DNA of 64,000 nucleotides from a virus (IMGVR_UViG_3300033069_000592:400-64399); one strand, 5' to 3'. Positions 7,209-34,724 are shown, counted from the stretch's first letter. Program-made: numbers and translations. Notes: generated by a model not told the origin, from the letters alone.

Positions 7209-7724
7209 ATGAATATCTTTTCTATCTCACGTCACCCGCGTATGTGCGCCAAAGCGCTCGATGACAAGCGCCTTAATAAGATGATCCTTGAGACTGCTCA
7301 GATCATTTGCACGGTCATTAACAAGACTGAAGGCTCACAGGTCACGCGATACCGAAGCAGTCACGTCAACCATCCCGCTACGATCTGGGCTGAGACCTTA
7401 CCCGCCGCATTGCCTTGGCTGTATGCGCTGGGCATCGCTTACGGCGATGAGATCCTGCATCGGCGCGGTCGACAGCACTCCTGCCACACAATGCTGCTTG
7501 AGCTCGTTGAGCAATACCCGTGGCTGCGTCGATACCGTCCGCTGCGCGAGGATCAGCTATTCAACGGCGCTCGACATAAGGGGCTTGACCTCGACTTCAC
7601 CTACCTGCCGACCACACAGGCCTATCGTGCCTATCTGTGTATGCGATGGCCGAACGACAAGCGGACGCCTGTATGGACTAACAGACGCCCGCCGTCATGG
7701 TTCTTTACTCCGGAGCCTCACTGA
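7209..7724 (+). CDS. Pyrimidine-dimer DNA glycosylase / endonuclease V-like protein
   Basis: MNIF...DKRLNKMILETAQII...HVNHPATIWA pattern of the DenV-like phage family. Confidence 0.7.
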   Translation: MNIFSISRHPRMCAKALDDKRLNKMILETAQIICTVINKTEGSQVTRYRSSHVNHPATIWAETLPAALPWLYALGIAYGDEILHRRGRQHSCHTMLLELVEQYPWLRRYRPLREDQLFNGARHKGLDLDFTYLPTTQAYRAYLCMRWPNDKRTPVWTNRRPPSWFFTPEPH

Positions 7725-10636: not shown

Positions 10637-11551
10637 TCACAAATCCCACTCAGGTCGGAAGTCGACAAACTCCTTGAAGTTAGGGTGTCGAGGCTTTTCC
10701 TTAGCACCCACCGCTTGAGACTTGTAGCGAACGAGCTTACCGAGCAGCGCTTTTGGGTCACGTTGAATTAGCTCCCAGAGCTTGTGTCGTTGGATCTTGG
10801 TAAACCCGCCGCCGACTCGAACCTCAGTGCCGTCCTTGATGTCGTCGAGGATAAAACCCCCAAGAGTACCTTTCGCTTTCTTTCCCGACTTAGCTGAGGA
10901 TCGCTTGAGCTTGCCGGTTGCTTCCCTCTTTGCTTCATTGGTGTTCTCCATTTCTTCATACCAGCCCTTGATGCGGCCTTCGCCATCCTTGAAGGGCTTG
11001 CACTTGAGCAACCAAGCCTGCTTGACCGTAGACTTGCCTTCCTTGTAGGGTCCTTTGGTATCTCGGACCATGATGCCTTCATAACCGAGCTCAAGTTTCT
11101 CGGTCAGATAATCCCGAAGCTCGAGGTGATCCCGAATGAGCCGATGCTTGAGCAGCTTGATGCGCTCGTGGGCCACAGAGCCGATCAAGTCGTGAGCCGC
11201 AAGGTATCGATCATACCAGTGATCGTCTAATCCTGGCCTGTCGAAGACCCATAGTGTAAAATCCGGCTCTCCATCTTCAGACGTAAGCCCTGAAGAAGTC
11301 CGTTGGAGAACGCCGGGACCCCGCCGACGACCAACAACTGCCTCCGCGTCGAGGAAACACCGAGGAGGAAGAATGTTGGATAGGGTTTCATGAAAGTGCC
11401 TGTTGGGAAACTTGGCCAATCGGCTGGTCATCGGGTGACTACCGAGCACACAGCGGAAGCCATCGATCTTTGGCGAGGCGTGAAGGGGGTAGATGAGGCG
11501 CTCGAAGTGATCTTCGTTAATCGCCTCACCTTTCATGGGACGCCTAATCAT
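10637..11551 (-). CDS. ATP-dependent DNA ligase (compact phage type)
   Basis: Adenylation motif ASPKIDGFR, EGIMVR, LLKCKP, C-terminal OB fold with VGGGFT and RHP. Confidence 0.92.
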   Translation of the reverse strand: MIRRPMKGEAINEDHFERLIYPLHASPKIDGFRCVLGSHPMTSRLAKFPNRHFHETLSNILPPRCFLDAEAVVGRRRGPGVLQRTSSGLTSEDGEPDFTLWVFDRPGLDDHWYDRYLAAHDLIGSVAHERIKLLKHRLIRDHLELRDYLTEKLELGYEGIMVRDTKGPYKEGKSTVKQAWLLKCKPFKDGEGRIKGWYEEMENTNEAKREATGKLKRSSAKSGKKAKGTLGGFILDDIKDGTEVRVGGGFTKIQRHKLWELIQRDPKALLGKLVRYKSQAVGAKEKPRHPNFKEFVDFRPEWDL

Positions 11552-13185: not shown

Positions 13186-13214
13186 ATTATCAATCATTCA
13201 TTGCCACCTGTCAA
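13186..13214 (-). promoter_or_regulatory. sigma70-type promoter
   Basis: TTGACA-17nt-GATAAT. Confidence 0.65.
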
Positions 13215-14044
13215 CGCACCACTTCCGCGGGTAGCATTTTGCGGTACTGGATCCACCCATCGAAGTTCCCGTGGAGGTGGGGCTCATACCAATGATGAAC
13301 CTTATGAACCTTAGCAATCAGCCGGTCCGGCGTTGCCTGGTGCTCGGCCGGCGAAGCGTGAACCGGGCGACTGACAACCAGCTTCTCATACCGAGCAATC
13401 TCAGCGTTGACGTCCGCCTCACCGTCGAACGGCTTGTAGCTGAGTCGGGCGCATCGGGCCACAGACATCATCTGGAGGGTATTCAAGCCCCAACGCCCGT
13501 CGGCTTCCCAGTCGCTGATGTAGGGCAGGTGCCACTCACCGTGGTGCAGCAGCTTCGGGGTGCTCGAGTCCATGGCGTTCTTCATCGCCGTCGCCAGCTG
13601 GTCGAACTCAGGCTGAGCATACGGACTGATCCGAAGCTCAAAAAAGTTCTTCCATCGGGTAGCCGTCACCAGAACGTCAATCCACCCAAACCACTCGAGC
13701 GGCCGATTGGCCCATTGCTTGTGCATACCCTCGGCCTGCCAGTGTTCGACCTGATCGCGGCAGATCTGGGCTAGGCGTTCCCACTCATCCGCCCACTTCC
13801 GCTGAAGATGGTCGGGCGCCCGAATTTCGGATTGCATACCCGGCTTGTTCATGCCGAACTCGGGCACGAAGATCTGCTCGGTCAACAAGACCTTGCTCGG
13901 TACTGCACGACTGCTGCGAGCATTACGGCTGAAGTCTCGATGAGTCATCAGCTCCGAGTGGATCGCTCGCCAATAGCGAAGGTGAAAGGTGGTCAGCCGG
14001 ATGCCTTCGGGGCTGATGCTGTCGAGAATGATGTTGGCGAACAC
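13211..14044 (-). CDS. thyX: Flavin-dependent thymidylate synthase (ThyX-like), GTG start at 14044
   Basis: HSELMTHRDFSRNARSSRAVP, HKQWANRPLE, NFFELR...AQPE; SD AAGGAAG. Confidence 0.85.
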   Translation of the reverse strand: MFANIILDSISPEGIRLTTFHLRYWRAIHSELMTHRDFSRNARSSRAVPSKVLLTEQIFVPEFGMNKPGMQSEIRAPDHLQRKWADEWERLAQICRDQVEHWQAEGMHKQWANRPLEWFGWIDVLVTATRWKNFFELRISPYAQPEFDQLATAMKNAMDSSTPKLLHHGEWHLPYISDWEADGRWGLNTLQMMSVARCARLSYKPFDGEADVNAEIARYEKLVVSRPVHASPAEHQATPDRLIAKVHKVHHWYEPHLHGNFDGWIQYRKMLPAEVVR

Positions 14045-14045
14045 T

Positions 14046-14150
14046 CTACTTCCTTTCTGCGGCTCGTGCCGCCATGCCGATGAGATAACCGGCGACAATC
14101 GAGATGGCCTGCCATAGGGCAACCTCCCGGACGGTATACTCACCCGTCAT
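14046..14150 (-). CDS. 34-aa single-pass membrane peptide (not in ORF track)
   Basis: MTGEYTVREVALWQAISIVAGYLIGMAARAAERK fills the gap between the MazG-like gene and thyX. Confidence 0.5.
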   Translation of the reverse strand: MTGEYTVREVALWQAISIVAGYLIGMAARAAERK

Positions 14151-14454
14151 CGCGAGGGTGCCGCCCGGCCTGAATGTTGTTGTGCCAGCGGCTGAACTTC
14201 TTGAACTTCTTCTCCGCCCGATTGACCATCTTGCCTCGGTTGAGCTTGTTGTGCTGGATCACGAAGTCCATCGCGGCCATTACATCGGCCAGCTCTTCTT
14301 CAAGGAGCAGCTTCAGGTTCAGACCATCCCAGCTGGTGAAGCCATGAGCACCCATGATCTTGCCGATGACCTGGTGAGTCTCCCCCATTTCTTCGATGAG
14401 CTTGCTGAAGCCGGGCAGGGTGTCGCTGCCGATACAGTGTGGGATATTCTTCAT
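14140..14454 (-). CDS. MazG-like nucleotide pyrophosphohydrolase
   Basis: KLIEEMGE ... EEELADV all-alpha NTP-PPase motif. Confidence 0.75.
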   Translation of the reverse strand: MKNIPHCIGSDTLPGFSKLIEEMGETHQVIGKIMGAHGFTSWDGLNLKLLLEEELADVMAAMDFVIQHNKLNRGKMVNRAEKKFKKFSRWHNNIQAGRHPRDDG

Positions 14455-28429: not shown

Positions 28430-30337
28430 TTATTCTTCGTCGGATGATGAGTCTTCAATCTTCCAGTACTCAACACCCTTGCGGGTCTTTCTGGTGACTC
28501 CCATCTTTGAAGCTGCTCGTTCGATCATCTGGACATTGATGCTGCGCTTCTCGGCCATGCGGAACAGCTTCGACATTTCAACAGCGGCGCCGGTGATCGT
28601 AGCCTCAAGGAACTCCATAGCATCTTGCATATGAGTACCCTGCTTACCTTCGGCCCGAGCATTAGAGGCTGCGTCGAGAACCTCCTGTGCGGAGTAGTTA
28701 ACGAACCCTCCCCAAACGAAGGCCGACTTGCCCTTGGGCTTTTCGTCAATGCGAAACGCAAGTCCTGGGGGTGCTTTAGCGAAGTTGATCTTGGTAACGC
28801 ACATGACGCGGGTCTCAGTATCGTTGGGGTCAACACCCACAGACATAACAACACGGGCCGAGCCTGAGAACGCGATAGAACCTTGACCACGATACATTGC
28901 AGAGCCGGTTCCCTTGGTCAAGTGACGCAGAACCAACACCGCACAGTTAAAGTCCTTGGCCAGCTTCTTGAATACACCCATCGCCTGCGTAACCTCCGCA
29001 GCTTTATGGGCGTCTGCGCGGCCAATATAGGTATTCAGGGTATCGAACACCAAGAGCGAAGGCTTGATAACCTCAAGGTGCTCGTAGATTTCCGCGATAG
29101 CATCCTCATCATCGATGCTAAAGCCTTCCTCAATTGGATAGTAGTCGTTCAGGTCAGTGAAGCCATTGTCTTCGAGTCGCGGCTTGGTGACTGACCCCGC
29201 GCTGTTTTCCAAGTCGAAATAGACCACGCTTCCCTGAGAGACCGGCAAACCCCGCTTGAATGTTGGGATCCTCTGACCTGTGGAAATCATGGCTGAAACC
29301 ATCATGGCGAGATAGGATTTACCAAGGCCCGGGTCACCCTCAAGGATCGACACTTCGCCGCGAGCCAGATAAGGCTCCCACAGGAAGTCGAGGTTAACCC
29401 GTTGAACCTTCGCCATGGGAATGAAATTGAAGCGCGACTCATATTCTTCCTCGCGTTCTTCCTCATCCGACTTTCGTTTGAGCTTTTCTTTTCCCTTGCC
29501 CTTATCACGGAACTGATTGTTGACGACCTTCTCAATCTCACGGCGAAGTTGAGCGTCCTCGTTGCGACGGCCCGCGAACTTGTTCCAGGCGCTGCGCTTG
29601 ATAACTGCAAGTGCTTCGTCTGTGGTCATCCCCGCTTCAAGGCAGGCGTTCTCCAGCTTCCAAAGCATTTCGCTTCGGTCAGCAGTGCCGGTGATTTTCT
29701 TCGCGAGCAATTCACGACGAACCCAGCGCGGCAGCTTCCCCTCATACTCGGAGAATACCTCCGCAGCAGAAAGGATCTGGCCTTCTTCCTCCTCGTCCTC
29801 CTCGGGAAGCTTCGACTCGATGTTCTTACGCTTATAGACCTTGCCGTCGTCCCACATAACGCGGACACGCGGCTGCGATTTATATTTGTAGTTCTTCGTG
29901 CCGGGGAACCGGAGAACCTGAGTCAAGTCCCAGCCGCCGTGGTCCGCTTCGACGTGATAGGTCAGCCGGCGGTTGATGTCTTCGGTCATCGGCTTATCAA
30001 GTTCCCACAGGCCGACGTAGCGGCCCGGCGACGACTCAATAGCAATGGTCGGCTTCAACCCCTTGAACAGCTTTTCGTTACGCGGGTCCGAATAGTCAAG
30101 GTCTGCCCAGAGCAGGTTCGGGATAACGGCCTCTTCCTTCTGACGCACTCGACGATTGAAGCCGTGCGGGCAGAAGTAAATGTCATGGTCGTCATAGTCG
30201 CGGAGGAACTGCTTGATCGAGCCGAAGTCATCGGGCGAGAAGAAGTGATCCTTCCACTTACCCGCGGGTGACTTGGTAGAAATGCAGAAATACTTACCGG
30301 GCTGTCTCTTCCATAGCTCAATGATTACGTTCTTCAC
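28430..30337 (-). CDS. Primase-helicase (RepB-type primase N-terminus + AAA_25/RecA-like ATPase)
   Basis: LWADLD, ESSPGR, LRFPGTKN; Walker A GDPGLGKS, Walker B LLVFDT; GTG start overlaps the HNH stop. Confidence 0.9.
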   Translation of the reverse strand: MKNVIIELWKRQPGKYFCISTKSPAGKWKDHFFSPDDFGSIKQFLRDYDDHDIYFCPHGFNRRVRQKEEAVIPNLLWADLDYSDPRNEKLFKGLKPTIAIESSPGRYVGLWELDKPMTEDINRRLTYHVEADHGGWDLTQVLRFPGTKNYKYKSQPRVRVMWDDGKVYKRKNIESKLPEEDEEEEGQILSAAEVFSEYEGKLPRWVRRELLAKKITGTADRSEMLWKLENACLEAGMTTDEALAVIKRSAWNKFAGRRNEDAQLRREIEKVVNNQFRDKGKGKEKLKRKSDEEEREEEYESRFNFIPMAKVQRVNLDFLWEPYLARGEVSILEGDPGLGKSYLAMMVSAMISTGQRIPTFKRGLPVSQGSVVYFDLENSAGSVTKPRLEDNGFTDLNDYYPIEEGFSIDDEDAIAEIYEHLEVIKPSLLVFDTLNTYIGRADAHKAAEVTQAMGVFKKLAKDFNCAVLVLRHLTKGTGSAMYRGQGSIAFSGSARVVMSVGVDPNDTETRVMCVTKINFAKAPPGLAFRIDEKPKGKSAFVWGGFVNYSAQEVLDAASNARAEGKQGTHMQDAMEFLEATITGAAVEMSKLFRMAEKRSINVQMIERAASKMGVTRKTRKGVEYWKIEDSSSDEE

Positions 30338-30840
30338 TTGGGCTTCCTTCCCGACACTGAGCCCCAAGGCCGCTTGTTCTTGTTTTGCTCAGACCACGTA
30401 GCCCACTTACAGTTAGAAGGCTCGTAGTTGCCAGCATTATCAATTCGTTCGAGCGTTAATCCCGGCGGCCTATCTCCCATATCGGTAAGAAACTCCTCGA
30501 AAGATTTCCACCGATCACAGAAAGTTACACCCCTACCGCCGTGAGTTGGATAGGCACGGTCTTTAGGATTAGAGCATCGAGAAATCATACTTCGCCAGGA
30601 GGAATAAGCACCTTTATGCTGCTCAATAAAAAGGGCCCTCTCGGTTTTCTCCCGGGGTTTCACCTTATTAAATCTAATCTCGCTTTTAATTCGGTCATAC
30701 TCCCGGCGGTCGATCAGACGAAGTCTACCAAAAGAATGAGTCTGGATTTGTCCTCGTTGAACCCTCGCATATAGGGTCTTGTAGGCTACACCCAATTCCT
30801 GGGATACACTTTCAAGAGTATAGAAATCGGAGAGAAGCAC
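30334..30840 (-). CDS. HNH-type homing endonuclease with N-terminal HTH
   Basis: SWRSMISRC...YPTHGGRGVTFCDRWKSFEEFLTDMG.RP.G.TLERIDNAGNYEPSNCKWAT; lower GC than neighbours. Confidence 0.85.
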   Translation of the reverse strand: MLLSDFYTLESVSQELGVAYKTLYARVQRGQIQTHSFGRLRLIDRREYDRIKSEIRFNKVKPREKTERALFIEQHKGAYSSWRSMISRCSNPKDRAYPTHGGRGVTFCDRWKSFEEFLTDMGDRPPGLTLERIDNAGNYEPSNCKWATWSEQNKNKRPWGSVSGRKPK

Positions 30841-30858: not shown

Positions 30859-30909
30859 TTGACAATGGCGTGAGTTCTAGAGTATATTCCTCAAAGTCAA
30901 CAAAGTCAA
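30859..30909. promoter_or_regulatory. Overlapping divergent sigma70-type promoters
   Basis: Plus: TTGACA(30859)-18nt-TATATT; minus: TTGACT(30909)-17nt-TATACT; the two -10 boxes overlap. Confidence 0.75.
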
Positions 30910-30933: not shown

Positions 30934-31428
30934 ATGGCCATCATCGTCGAAGGTATGGATAATTCGGGCAAGTCTACGTTGGGACAGGCGCTCGCCGATT
31001 ACATGGACCTGATCGTGCAGGAGAGCGAGGGCCCGCCTATCGACGCGGACGAGATTAATGCTCGCGTTGATCGCTACGAAGGAATGACGGATAGGCTGTT
31101 CGTTCGGCATCCCGTTATCTCCAATGCGATTTACGGACAAGTCCGCGAAGAAGGCGACATTATCTCCGAAGGTCGCCGTATGCTCTTCTACGAAAACAAG
31201 CATACGATCATCTACTGCGATGCGGGGACCCGCGGTCTCGGTGCTCATGTCCAGAAGGCTCATGATACTGAGAAGCACCTGGAAGACATCACCAACAACT
31301 ACAACAAGCTGCTCTACCTTTACCGTCAATGGGCGGCCGAGCATGCTCACTTCGTCTATCGCATCGGCGATGATATGGACCAGCTGATTGCTACGGTCTA
31401 CTTCTACCATATGTATCAGAACAGCTAA
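30934..31428 (+). CDS. P-loop nucleoside monophosphate kinase
   Basis: IIVEGMDNSGKST; 164 aa; first gene of the nucleotide-metabolism operon. Confidence 0.75.
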   Translation: MAIIVEGMDNSGKSTLGQALADYMDLIVQESEGPPIDADEINARVDRYEGMTDRLFVRHPVISNAIYGQVREEGDIISEGRRMLFYENKHTIIYCDAGTRGLGAHVQKAHDTEKHLEDITNNYNKLLYLYRQWAAEHAHFVYRIGDDMDQLIATVYFYHMYQNS

Positions 31429-31437
31429 GGAGAACGA

Positions 31438-32316
31438 GTGATGTTTATTCCAACTCACCGACACGTGGATGGCGGCCTTTATCAGCATATCGGCCCTATG
31501 AGAGGTAAGCATCCTTCGAACGACCTATGGTTCGAGGGCATCGCCTATCGCAATGAAGAAGGCATGATGTTCTGGACCACCGAAGAACGGTGGAATGATC
31601 GCTTCGAAGCCCTCGAGCCCTCATCCTTCCGCGATGTCCTGTTGTGGGACGATCAGAACGAAGCGGTGGCTTCTTTCCGCATCGAGGCTCACCACGCTAC
31701 CGACGCTTACTATATGATTACCCGCGCGGGCCCGGGAAACAGCCACAAGGTCAGCCGCGAGTTCTTGGACTGGATGCGTCGGGTTCTCAAGGTTCAAGCG
31801 GAAATGATCGCCGAGGGTCTTCATATCCGTGAGCACGACTTTCCCGATCTTATCGGTGATGTCAACGCTTTCCACGCCAAGTTCGGTCAGGAATACACCG
31901 GCAAGCCCCGGCTACTGCCACGGGATCTCCATGAGTTTCGCACCAAATTCCATGACGAGGAAACCGGCGAGTATACTGAGGAGTATGAGAAGCTCTTGGA
32001 TGCGATTGAGCGCCGCGACCGGCGGGACATCATTACCGCGATGGAGAAGCAGCTGGACTCGCTGGCCGACGCTGCCTGGGTTATTCTCGGGACTGCAGAT
32101 CTTCAGTTCGGTCGGAAGGCGTTCATCGAAGCATGGCGCCGAGTCGTGAAAGCCAATATGGCGAAAGTCTTGGCGACGGAGGATCCCAACGCCGAGGACA
32201 GCGGCCGGGAAGTCAAATATGACATTCGCAAGCCCGCCGGCTGGCTGCCGCCCGATCACCGTGACCTGGTCGAGGACAACGCCATCTTCGATGAACTCTT
32301 TGGACAGGAAGCCTAA
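31438..32316 (+). CDS. DUF1653-like N-terminus fused to MazG-like (all-alpha) dNTP pyrophosphatase
   Basis: HRHVDGGLY...YRNEEG...RF; DVNAFHAKFG...DEETGEY...LDSLADAAWV...VVKANMAK. Confidence 0.75.
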   Translation: MMFIPTHRHVDGGLYQHIGPMRGKHPSNDLWFEGIAYRNEEGMMFWTTEERWNDRFEALEPSSFRDVLLWDDQNEAVASFRIEAHHATDAYYMITRAGPGNSHKVSREFLDWMRRVLKVQAEMIAEGLHIREHDFPDLIGDVNAFHAKFGQEYTGKPRLLPRDLHEFRTKFHDEETGEYTEEYEKLLDAIERRDRRDIITAMEKQLDSLADAAWVILGTADLQFGRKAFIEAWRRVVKANMAKVLATEDPNAEDSGREVKYDIRKPAGWLPPDHRDLVEDNAIFDELFGQEA

Positions 32317-32319
32317 GCC

Positions 32320-33156
32320 ATGAAGGATGAGTGGATCAAAGAGATCTTGAGGCTTTCGCGTCAAGAAGCCGACTTCTATTCGGGATGCCGAAAGATCATT
32401 CGTAACCACATGGTCACTTTCGATGACCTGTGGGAGGACGAAGATCCACTCATCCTCGAGGACGCCGGTTATACCAAGTCCAAGATGTCCCACCTGGTAA
32501 GGCTCTATCATCACGAGGAGTCTATCGAAAAAGCCATAGAGCTTTGGAAGCTTCGCCGCTCCAAGACTTCCTATGGCTCTGTGGGCTTCACCTGCTACAA
32601 CCACTTGGTGAAGAATGATGCCGAGAAAAAATCGAAGCGGGCCTCGGTCATGGGTCCATGTATTCAGGCTGTTACGATTACGCAGGTTAAGGGCGGTAAA
32701 AACGGGCAGTACTACATCGACGCCTTCTACCGAACCACGGAAATCCTGAAGAAGTTTCCCGCGGATCTGGTCTTTATCCGTGATGTCTTGTTGAAAGACT
32801 TTGACTTCTCCGGCATGGAATTTACGGGGCTGACTTGTCATTTCGCAAATGTTACAGTGCATCCGCAGTACTTCGTGACGGCAATCCCCCATATGGAGGA
32901 TCCCATCAAGGAGCTCGAACGCATCAAGAAGAAGGACCGCTACTTCTATGACTGGATCATCAAGTGGACGGCTCGATACTTGTGTGAAGAGCACTACCGA
33001 GGAATTGCCAAGTTCGCGCAGGCTCTCCGTGTTAAAATGGATGCTGACAAGCGGATCAAGGGACGCCGACGCCGCGAGCTTACTGACTACCTCCGGGCTA
33101 ATCATCCCGGCCATCGCCACGACTACACCGCTCCCGAAGAGGAAGATGAAGAATGA
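32320..33156 (+). CDS. Divergent thymidylate-synthase-fold protein
   Basis: GPCIQ ... YRTTEILKKFPADL aligns register-for-register with APCTI ... IRSCDFVKHFRNDL of the next gene. Confidence 0.65.
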   Translation: MKDEWIKEILRLSRQEADFYSGCRKIIRNHMVTFDDLWEDEDPLILEDAGYTKSKMSHLVRLYHHEESIEKAIELWKLRRSKTSYGSVGFTCYNHLVKNDAEKKSKRASVMGPCIQAVTITQVKGGKNGQYYIDAFYRTTEILKKFPADLVFIRDVLLKDFDFSGMEFTGLTCHFANVTVHPQYFVTAIPHMEDPIKELERIKKKDRYFYDWIIKWTARYLCEEHYRGIAKFAQALRVKMDADKRIKGRRRRELTDYLRANHPGHRHDYTAPEEEDEE

Positions 33157-33995
33157 TGTATAACCGCTTTGATGCCGTCATCCAGGAATATCGGGATAGG
33201 CTGAGGAACGAAGGCGAGCTGGTTCACAGCCGCCGTTGGCAGGGTGTCGAAATTGCGAACAACCCCAATATGGCGTGTCTTGAATTGACTCACGTCCACT
33301 TCGAAGTGCAGATGGATGGTTATGAGGAAGACCTCGAAGTATACGCCAAGTGCATTCAGCCCGACCTCCCATGGGCGGACAACCACTTCGAGGAGCGAGT
33401 TTGCGGCTATCCGATCAATCCCGGTACCGAGTTCAAGAACTGGCCATGGAACAGGGGGCGTGGCGCTGAGTCGTTCCTTGATCGCCGGGGCAAGTTCAAT
33501 CACAACTACATGGAGCGGTACTGGCCGAAGCATGCCCACGTGGTTCAAGAGCCCACAGCCGGTTCGGCGGATTATCGGTCGCGCTTCAAGGACTACTTCC
33601 AGACCGGCAAGGTCTCGACCATGCAGGGCATCATGTATGAGTATGGTGACCTGAAGGACGTGGTGGACCTGATGATCGATGATCCCCTGACCCGCCAGGC
33701 CTATTTGCCTGTGTGGTTCCCCGAGGACACCGGCGGCGGTGACAAGCGAGCACCCTGCACCATTGGTTACCACTTCCTGATGCGGAATGATCGACTGTCG
33801 GTCAACTACCATATTCGCAGCTGCGACTTCGTCAAGCACTTCCGCAATGATCTTTATCTTACGGCTCGATTGGTGATCTGGGTGCTTCGTCAGCTACAGT
33901 CTCGCGATGCTCGCTGGAAGGAAGTGTCCGTCGGTGATTTCATCATGCAGATTGGTTCGCTGCACTCATTCCGTCCGGACTGGGAGCTGATCTGA
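33153..33995 (+). CDS. Thymidylate synthase/dCMP hydroxymethylase-family enzyme, predicted dCMP-specific
   Basis: TRQAYLPVW, catalytic PC, RSCD, Asp at the E. coli ThyA Asn177 position (FRND as in T4 gp42), GSLH. Confidence 0.85.
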   Translation: MMYNRFDAVIQEYRDRLRNEGELVHSRRWQGVEIANNPNMACLELTHVHFEVQMDGYEEDLEVYAKCIQPDLPWADNHFEERVCGYPINPGTEFKNWPWNRGRGAESFLDRRGKFNHNYMERYWPKHAHVVQEPTAGSADYRSRFKDYFQTGKVSTMQGIMYEYGDLKDVVDLMIDDPLTRQAYLPVWFPEDTGGGDKRAPCTIGYHFLMRNDRLSVNYHIRSCDFVKHFRNDLYLTARLVIWVLRQLQSRDARWKEVSVGDFIMQIGSLHSFRPDWELI

Positions 33996-34213
33996 TGTCG
34001 GCTTTTCACACCGACTTCAACACCGGCGAGCGTGTTATCGTGGATGGTGACACCTCCCTGGTGGGAATAGTCACCGCGATCTTGGTAAGGGGTAAAGACT
34101 TCGGGGGAGAACGGTACACCTTTATCTTTCAGTATGAGGTGTCCTGGTTCCACAATGGTGAGTCGAAGTCCTCTTGGATTGAAGAATACCGCCTGAGCAG
34201 ACCGGAGAAGTAG
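33995..34213 (+). CDS. 72-aa hypothetical beta-barrel-like protein
   Basis: TGATG overlap; GERVIVDGD...GIVTAI...YEVSWF. Confidence 0.6.
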   Translation: MSAFHTDFNTGERVIVDGDTSLVGIVTAILVRGKDFGGERYTFIFQYEVSWFHNGESKSSWIEEYRLSRPEK

Positions 34214-34214
34214 A

Positions 34215-34724
34215 ATGGCTCGTATCTCTCGACAGCAAATGTTTATGGGAATTGCAAGGCTCGCTTCACAGCGGGCCACTTGCTTTCGACTGAACGTTGG
34301 GGCGCTGGTTGTTCATGAGAACAATCCCATCGCCATCGGCTACAATGGCCAAGAACCTGGAGCTCGTCACTGCGCCGGCAATGACTGCCCGGGGATTGTG
34401 CCCGGCAAGTGTGGAACGCTTCATGCCGAACACAACGCGCTGACCAAGGCGGACAAGCTCATCGATGACCTGGCGGAGGTTGACCTCTACGTTACCCACA
34501 GTCCCTGCGTCGATTGCTGTTTACTTATCATCAACCAGGACCTCTACGTCCGCAGGATTTTCTTCGAGGTTCCCTATCGATCCACACAGCACCTGAGTAT
34601 GCTTCAAGAGTACCGGGACGTTACCTCACTCGAAGGCGGCGTCCGGCATACGGAAGTTTACGAGGTGACGCCGGCGGGCTACGTCGTGGAATACTTCTCC
34701 CGAAGGGTAGTTGAATTGCCATGA
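34215..34724 (+). CDS. dCMP deaminase
   Basis: RATC.RLNVGA, GYNG, HAE, SPCVDC zinc-binding motifs. Confidence 0.92.
   Translation: MARISRQQMFMGIARLASQRATCFRLNVGALVVHENNPIAIGYNGQEPGARHCAGNDCPGIVPGKCGTLHAEHNALTKADKLIDDLAEVDLYVTHSPCVDCCLLIINQDLYVRRIFFEVPYRSTQHLSMLQEYRDVTSLEGGVRHTEVYEVTPAGYVVEYFSRRVVELP

Follow-up and report, generated by a model that had tools for sequence, protein, structure and literature searches.

Which nucleotide is made by a phage operon that encodes two adjacent proteins of the thymidylate synthase (TS) fold, in a genome with a separate enzyme, ThyX, for thymidylate (dTMP)? This question is raised by the virus record IMGVR_UViG_3300033069_000592, of which a stretch of 64,000 nt, hereafter the window, was analysed; it covers nearly all of the 64,399-bp record, rated complete by CheckV. 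On the + strand, from 30934 to 34724, six genes encode in order a deoxynucleoside monophosphate (dNMP) kinase, a pyrophosphatase, the two TS-fold proteins (TS2 and then TS1), a 72-aa open reading frame (ORF) and a deaminase. On balance, the evidence tilts towards a conserved early operon that feeds the phage polymerase, PolA, with a C5-modified deoxycytidine nucleotide, which would place modified cytosine in the virion DNA.

TS1, a thymidylate synthase homologue

Regarding its family, TS1 was named by PHROG (Table 1), and its AlphaFold (AF2) model (pLDDT 74) gave 396 Foldseek matches at E <= 0.001, with the best at E 3.5e-10; all were TS-family proteins among the matches listed, and the top one was AfhB (9iqu). 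The best PDB match by sequence (phmmer) was the T4 deoxycytidine monophosphate (dCMP) hydroxymethylase gp42 (1b49, E 0.0057). As for Pfam, TS1 had no match at E <= 0.01, and a six-frame search of the whole genome with the thymidylate synthase model PF00303 returned none at E <= 1; a precomputed PF00303 match is present in many TS1 relatives, and a protein search found 2,833 TS1 homologues.

The change from Asn to Asp at ThyA position 177 is the established switch from deoxyuridine monophosphate (dUMP) to dCMP (cited in PMC13326640 and PMC8670742), and in a metavirome study positions 177 and 147 were the two most associated with cytosine-modified DNA (eLife). The first-pass annotation of the window had assigned this Asp to TS1 and had quoted the motif that carries it. 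The motif is present at residues 222-233, and its last Asp fell on Asp179 of T4 gp42 in the phmmer alignment and on Asn177 of E. coli ThyA in a MAFFT alignment of TS1, E. coli ThyA, T4 gp42, RB69 gp48, the Xp12 TS, and the SPO1 and Kuttervirus TS homologues, taken from public records; the aligned FRND motif, whose Asp is Asp179 in gp42, is common to TS1 and gp42. In this alignment, the column of Asn177 has Asp in TS1, T4 gp42, RB69 gp48 and the Xp12 TS, and Asn in the SPO1 and Kuttervirus homologues, in which the L143 position is Asp. The last two are taken here to be dUMP hydroxymethylases; their records read hypothetical protein and thymidylate synthase.

Residues were then counted in 61 members of the TS1 family, from viral contigs and cultured phages. 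Cys146, Arg166, Ser167, Asp169 and His207 (ThyA numbering) are kept in all of them, and position 177 is always Asp; position 147, a His in canonical ThyA, is Thr or Ser, and the L143 position is Arg in 60 of the 61. TS1 ends nine residues past the His207 equivalent, without the C-terminal tail of ThyA and of the Xp12 TS, and so it departs from canonical ThyA at Asn177, at His147 and in the folate-closing tail. By the published residue rules, the prediction that TS1 is a cytosine-specific, dCMP C5-modifying enzyme is well supported.

As for the group that it would transfer, the published signatures are Asp or Glu at L143 for hydroxymethyl, a hydrophobic residue at L143 for methyl, and D169N for the 5-hydroxy-dCMP synthases (PMC13326640). 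TS1 was also considered as a synthase of this last kind and rejected, because the diagnostic D169N does not occur in any of the 61 sequences. Between the other two, hydroxymethylation is somewhat more likely than methylation, given the missing C-terminal tail of TS1, the rank of T4 gp42 as its best solved match, and the lack of a DHFR gene in the genome.

TS2, a divergent TS-fold protein

TS2 was left unnamed by the Pfam and NCBIfam scans. Its AlphaFold (AF2) model, built on 22 relatives, had a pLDDT of 85 and a pTM of 0.80, and the top Foldseek match was 9iqu, the dCMP hydroxylase AfhB of phage HY126 (E 1e-5). With VIA-align, AfhB had a Z of 13.0, with a root-mean-square deviation of 3.7 over 179 residues, followed by MilA (Z 12.4), and by ThyA and the T4 dCMP hydroxymethylase (Z 10-11); 396 chains had Z >= 8, and all were TS-family proteins among the 50 entries listed.

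When 1.84 billion cluster representatives were searched with a profile (E <= 0.001), the TS2 family came to 256 clusters at 50% identity. In 110 full-length representatives, C114, R138 and D149 are the sole fully invariant residues, and E141 is Glu in 96% and Asp in 4%; these four have the order and spacing of Cys146, Arg166, Asp169 and Asn177 of ThyA. The program hhalign also paired them with the ThyA-type residues, at only 0.4-1.2% probability, and because this value between the TS2 and TS1 profiles is so low, the fold assignment rests on structure. TS2 looks like an active cytosine-nucleotide enzyme, and not a decayed copy, because the modelled TS fold is combined with the invariant Cys, Arg and Asp. 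A 5-hydroxy-dCMP synthase was considered for TS2 as well; D169N is absent, with Glu or Asp at that position. Finally, the predictions of a TS1-TS2 complex scored 0.46, 0.00 and 0.00, and they were counted neither way.

Taken at the level of sequence, cytosine-directed C5 chemistry is strongly indicated, because the position of Asn177 is held by Asp without exception in TS1 and, judged by the order of the motif residues, also in TS2.

Conservation and distribution of the module

The TS2 profile was used to collect 55 IMG/VR loci, with protein identities down to 25-50%. TS1 comes after TS2 in 54 of them, the one exception being cut by the contig end, and the order kinase-MazG-TS2-TS1-deaminase-PolA is complete in 44; the other 11 are without at least one gene or are cut by the contig end. 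The kinase is the first gene of the module in 45 loci, and the deaminase lies between TS1 and polA in 52. Where the contig reaches far enough, the wider order is primase-helicase (- strand), kinase, MazG, TS2, TS1, deaminase, PolA, Cas4-like exonuclease and Sak4.

The module also occurs in named phages. The full order is found in Yersinia phage P744; in Brevundimonas phage Strzyga it is kept except that no deaminase is annotated, and Brevundimonas phage Polewnik encodes a TS2-TS1 pair together with a deaminase and PolA. In a Manatee Spring virus, ThyX and a ligase lie inside the module and no deaminase is annotated. Serratia phages Serbin and Tlacuache are further cultured carriers. In Gordonia phage Emalyn and in Microbacterium phage Huwbert, the module comprises kinase, MazG, a TS2-like protein, TS1, deaminase and PolA; their proteins at the TS2 position match the TS2 profile (E 2.5e-8 and 1.2e-6, respectively). 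In Emalyn, a lysin B gene is inserted between TS1 and the deaminase, and in Huwbert a true ThyA, with Asn177, directly follows TS1. In some loci, extra genes lie between TS2, TS1 and the deaminase, namely a ClpX-type zinc finger, a weak deoxyribosyltransferase-like match and an exoribonuclease; no known modification enzyme was found among the extra genes of the related loci.

The accompanying enzymes and the proposed pathway

The kinase has a Walker A motif at residues 7-14, and its NCBIfam matches are at the P-loop level only. As for the pyrophosphatase, it had been called MazG-like in the first-pass annotation, and this call draws support from PHROG 671 and from weak PDB matches by phmmer (3nl9, E 0.004; MazG-like DR2231, E 0.009), but none from Pfam, in which a MazG or PRA-PH match was absent at E <= 0.1. 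Its N-terminal 130 residues (31438-31830) had no family match; they are kept in close relatives, in which the tblastn matches begin right after the kinase, and in distant relatives 220-330 nt separate the end of the kinase match from the start of the MazG match. The deaminase carries the HAE and PCxxC zinc motifs.

Regarding the rest of the genome, about 49 ORFs of the window were scanned against Pfam, many of them without any match. The first-pass annotation had reported a ThyX elsewhere, and the gene was found on the - strand with a score above the Pfam cut-off; it had also reported no glycosyltransferase or DHFR, and the Pfam scans and six-frame family searches agreed, returning no DHFR, carbamoyltransferase, TET/JBP, C5-methyltransferase or GT2 glycosyltransferase. 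Families of the 5-hydroxymethyldeoxyuridine (5hmdU) DNA kinase and aGPT type did not turn up in the Pfam scans either, and they were not searched by name.

A second small MazG-type protein (104 aa, 14140-14454, - strand) adjoins ThyX, and its Pfam MazG match (E 0.004) does not reach the cut-off; two nucleotide pyrophosphatases may thus be encoded in the genome.

From folds, active-site residues and synteny, which are seen directly, we infer the substrates, the product, the dCTPase role and the incorporation into DNA in a scheme modelled as a whole on T4 and Xp12. The MazG-like pyrophosphatase would convert dCTP, and perhaps dUTP too, into the monophosphate; TS1, probably with or before TS2, would attack C6 of dCMP with its Cys and place a one-carbon or other group onto C5. 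The phage kinase would phosphorylate the unusual dNMP, a host kinase would complete the triphosphate, and PolA would put this modified deoxycytidine (dC) triphosphate into DNA. The deaminase would divert part of the dC or modified-dC pool to deoxyuridine or thymidine (dT) nucleotides, and ThyX would produce dTMP.

Comparison with known systems

The division of labour is the same as in the T4 pathway, with gp56 as dCTPase, gp42, gp1 as dNMP kinase, cd as deaminase and a separate td. Like TS1, gp42 has Asp at the specificity position, the FRND motif and no ThyA C-terminal tail; however, it has Asp at the L143 position, where TS1 has Arg, and TS1 has a large conserved insert (residues 70-165) with respect to gp42. 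Other differences are that the pyrophosphatase is of the MazG type, whereas gp56 is of another family, that dTMP comes from ThyX and not from td, that the second TS-fold enzyme is not in the T4 set, and that T4 has glucosyltransferases while here there are none. Finally, this is a phage of 64 kb with a family A polymerase, unlike T4.

The second comparison is with phages of the Xp12/PaMx74 type, in which a TS homologue with Asp177 lies beside a deaminase of the dCMP family, as here (bioRxiv 10.1101/2024.12.05.627091). The Xp12 TS has a ThyA-like C-terminal tail and Asn at L143, whereas TS1 has no tail and Arg; in addition, the Xp12 TS adjoins a DHFR and a HAD hydrolase, while DHFR is not in this genome. 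No Xp12 or Xanthomonas phage was among the tblastn matches of TS1 listed (41 of 190, and 60 of 1,467 records).

The MetaGPA work gives this neighbourhood a wider context. On cytosine-modified contigs, 70% of the deaminases lie at <=3 kb from a TS, versus 6% on unmodified contigs, and the TS with Asp177 co-occurs with PRA-PH, deaminase and PolA, with PRA-PH and PolA as other top neighbours (PMC8670742; bioRxiv 10.1101/2024.12.05.627091); both papers come from one group. Five of seven TS enzymes tested from such contigs made 5-methyl-dCMP (5mdCMP), and one deaminase turns 5mdCTP into dTTP (bioRxiv 10.1101/2024.12.05.627091). The TS/PRA-PH/deaminase/PolA association matches the gene order found here; the TS1 and TS2 motifs were not found in the MetaGPA supplements.

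As for the 5-hydroxy-dCMP synthases (RB69 gp48, DLP3 gp80 and HY126 AfhB; PMC13326640), they share with TS1 the TS fold, Asp177 and the missing tail, but not D169N, and neither glycosyltransferase nor sugar-nucleotide genes occur here. The CMP hydroxymethylases MilA and BcmA are cytosine-specific enzymes of the TS fold, and MilA is among the good structural matches of TS2; they act on ribonucleotides in bacterial antibiotic clusters, whereas TS1 and TS2 lie beside a phage replisome.

Because systems of this kind are already described, the module is less novel than the first-pass annotation had thought. What is new is the TS1 lineage, with Arg at L143 and no C-terminal tail, together with its constant TS2 partner; the literature search found no description of this lineage, of TS2 as a partner, or of a constant pair of TS-fold proteins with Asp177. 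The proposal of a C5-substituted dCMP in the first-pass annotation stands as far as cytosine-directed chemistry is concerned, given Asp177, the separate ThyX, the T4-like gene set and the published association; its entry into virion DNA is what we infer.

Restriction sites and alternative explanations

Several observations weigh against modified cytosine in the virion DNA, and the strongest come from restriction sites, whose expected counts were calculated with a maximal-order Markov model for all 4096 hexamers. CGATCG (1 versus 33.6 expected) and TGATCA (2 versus 28.6 expected) are the two most under-represented hexamers of the genome, and CGATCG is also low across most, not all, of the related loci (143 versus 441 expected in total), with 1 versus 45 expected in Strzyga. 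In published digests, PvuI, whose site is CGATCG, was blocked both on DNA with 5-hydroxymethylcytosine (5hmC; T4gt) and on DNA with 5-methylcytosine (5mC; Xp12), and the fully 5mC-substituted Xp12 shows no comparable avoidance of CGATCG. At a cytosine-containing site, then, these phages seem open to restriction, and the avoidance speaks against DNA that is fully protected with 5mC or 5hmC. Moreover, the nearest solved relatives of the pyrophosphatase are DR2231, which we take to be dUTP-preferring, and an uncharacterised putative NTP pyrophosphohydrolase, with no known dCTPase among them; Arg at L143 in TS1 fits neither the hydroxymethyl nor the methyl signature; and the literature search found no DNA-modification measurement on the close relatives (Strzyga, Polewnik, P744, Serbin, Tlacuache, PMBT14 and the Gordonia relatives). 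The EcoRI typing reported in the Brevundimonas paper gives no information in this respect, because the sequence AATT does not occur in Strzyga.

The rest of the site content is mixed. The mixed forms abound (CGATCA 52, TGATCG 68), TCGA is over-represented (622 versus 509 expected), and GTAC (105 versus 175 expected), AATATT (0 versus 10), GGATGT (0 versus 10.5) and GATATC are also low. The avoided subsets differ between relatives, and such lineage-variable avoidance is the pattern that restriction pressure produces. In this genome, GC-only palindromes are not avoided. Strzyga avoids few sites only, namely CGATCG, GGATCC, AGATCT, GCATGC, ACGCGT and AATT (0 versus 37 expected), while Babayka, a T7-like phage of the same Brevundimonas host, is without nearly all 6-bp GC-rich palindromes and has GTAC 0 times versus 72 expected. 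AATATT, GATATC, GTAC and GGATG are avoided though cytosine modification cannot protect them or does not block their cleavage. The unavoided GC-only palindromes, the contrast with Babayka and the avoidance of these last sites point away from unprotected DNA. A by-eye comparison with the published cleavability of 5hmC DNA found avoidance of 3 of 9 cleavable and about 6 of 45 resistant sites; Dam methylation of the T4 controls is a confounder of the published BclI results.

The alternative that survives best, although we regard it as unlikely, is that the virion DNA is canonical and the module supplies thymidylate, turning the excess dC nucleotides of the host into dT nucleotides for a phage of lower G+C. 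In such a scheme, MazG would yield dCMP or dUMP, the deaminase and ThyX would lead to dTMP, and the kinase would be a plain dTMP kinase; TS1 and TS2 would methylate dCMP, and the deaminase would convert the product into dTMP or dTTP, as in the bypass proposed for Xp12, with little or no modified dC in DNA. That CGATCG, TGATCA and GTAC are avoided strongly, in a pattern that varies between lineages, suggests that the DNA can be cut by restriction enzymes, and the kinase matches thymidylate-kinase families. The window has 50-61% G+C and Strzyga 59.3%; Caulobacterales hosts are richer in G+C than these phages. In addition, a 5mC-selective deaminase that turns 5mdCTP into dTTP is documented in such neighbourhoods (bioRxiv 10.1101/2024.12.05.627091), and the annotators of Gordonia phages read these genes as thymine synthesis (PMC10353413). 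However, ThyX, or ThyA in Huwbert, already gives dTMP, so that two extra enzymes with Asp177 would be redundant, yet they are kept from actinobacterial to proteobacterial phages. The C-terminal tail, which ThyA needs for reductive methyl transfer, is absent from TS1, no DHFR is encoded, and in Xp12 the bypass coexists with full replacement by 5mC.

Returning to modified cytosine in DNA, a doubtful but consequential variant is that TS2 and TS1, in sequence or as a heterodimer, install a C5 substituent other than methyl, hydroxymethyl or hydroxyl; for example, one enzyme would make 5-hydroxymethyl-dCMP, and the other would re-activate it through an exocyclic methylene intermediate and add a different nucleophile. 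If true, this would be a new DNA base made wholly before replication, and it could explain the continued avoidance of some cytosine-containing sites.

Modification of thymidine is far less probable: a TS-fold enzyme would hydroxymethylate the dUMP supplied by the deaminase, and 5hmdU would become part of the DNA, as it does in SPO1, ViI and M6. The fusion of PolA to UDG agrees with this reading, since phages with UDG-fused PolA of the SPO1 and SP15 types are T-modified, and the deaminase together with a dUTPase-like MazG would supply dUMP. On the other hand, the residue at the specificity position is Asp in 61 of 61 TS1 and 110 of 110 TS2 relatives, TS1 is unlike the SPO1 and Kuttervirus homologues with their Asn177 and Asp at L143, the general Pfam scans named no 5hmdU DNA kinase or aGPT family, though neither was searched by name, and the polymerase, with 834 aa, is not of the large SP15 type.

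The least probable reading, a modified cytosine nucleotide that stays outside DNA as a decoy, inhibitor or signal against nucleotide-sensing defences of the host, recalls MilA and BcmA, which make hydroxymethyl-CMP for antibiotics, the fact that TS2 is structurally as near to MilA as to any ThyA, and the restriction-site avoidance, which suggests unprotected DNA, but it is at odds with genes that always lie between the dNMP kinase with the pyrophosphatase and the replicative polymerase, with the lack of further tailoring genes among those found, and with the lack of a phage precedent.

Layout of the locus and further features

All six genes of the first-pass list were recovered where it had placed them, on the + strand (Table 1). 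The run is tightly packed, and neighbouring genes are separated by 10, 3 and 1 nt or overlap by 4, 1 and 4 nt; the start of TS1 overlaps the stop of TS2 by 4 nt. It is bounded by a divergent primase-helicase (28430-30367, - strand) and by the polymerase gene, and the promoter candidate at its head sits 46 nt upstream of the kinase ATG. A further detail had to be corrected: the run had been described as directly upstream of the polymerase, and an HNH gene separates the deaminase from polA. This gene looks like a recent mobile insertion, outside the pathway, because an HNH match at this place is missing from all 55 related loci; six have one elsewhere.

Table 1. Coordinates, strand and supporting evidence of the features discussed in the text
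Feature	Position	Strand	Evidence
Sigma-70-like promoter candidate, operon head	30859-30888	+	TTGACA, 18 nt, TATATT; 11/12 consensus positions; consensus match only
Divergent promoter candidate	30909-30881	-	
P-loop dNMP kinase, thymidylate-kinase-like, 164 aa	30934-31428	+	PHROG 761 'thymidylate kinase', E 1.8e-9
MazG-like (all-alpha) NTP pyrophosphohydrolase, 292 aa	31438-32316	+	PHROG 671 'nucleotide pyrophosphohydrolase', E 7.7e-16, residues 130-280
TS2, divergent TS-fold protein, 278 aa	32320-33156	+	AlphaFold model and structure matches
TS1, thymidylate-synthase homologue, 280 aa	33153-33995	+	PHROG 160 'thymidylate synthase', E 3.9e-28
72-aa ORF	33995-34213	+	Open frame; tblastn
dCMP/dCTP-family zinc deaminase, 169 aa	34215-34724	+	dCMP_cyt_deam_1 in Pfam (PF00383), 65.9 bits vs cut-off 25; PHROG 174, E 5e-34
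HNH homing-type endonuclease, 99 aa	34721-35020	+	PHROG 3377, E 3.2e-42
PolA, family A DNA polymerase with UDG-like N-terminal domain, 834 aa	35082-37586	+	Pfam DNA_pol_A E 1.6e-69, exonuclease E 2.4e-18, UDG E 1.8e-6
ThyX, flavin-dependent thymidylate synthase	13211-14143	-	Pfam PF02511, 35.8 bits vs cut-off 24.8; TIGR02170 E 9.6e-11
Rare site CGATCG	49586		
Rare sites TGATCA	5976 and 16415		

The 72-aa ORF had no family match in the Pfam, PHROG or NCBIfam scans; in 15 near relatives, tblastn detected matching sequence at the corresponding place, with 34-45% identity. The UDG-fused PolA shows the GEHPR and HPN motifs. Elsewhere in the window, a pyrimidine-dimer DNA glycosylase like T4 endonuclease V (7209-7724, + strand; Pfam Pyr_excise, E 2.3e-7) and an ATP-dependent DNA ligase (10637-11551, - strand) were noted; DNA ligase is one domain associated with modified contigs in the MetaGPA study. 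Finally, sequencing runs place the phage in river, wastewater and sludge samples, which carries no information on modification.

Significance

Pre-replicative replacement of cytosine is a major route by which phages evade CRISPR and restriction enzymes, and enzymes for epigenetic sequencing are drawn from it. The module described here is widespread, in phages of alpha- and gammaproteobacteria and of actinobacteria, and several of these phages are in culture; screens that rely on the Pfam thymidylate synthase model could overlook members like TS1, because PF00303 finds nothing in this genome. In conclusion, knowledge of the product would bring to light a new base or pathway, or else reveal that TS homologues with Asp177 need not mean modified DNA, and either outcome would sharpen the reading of phage genomes.

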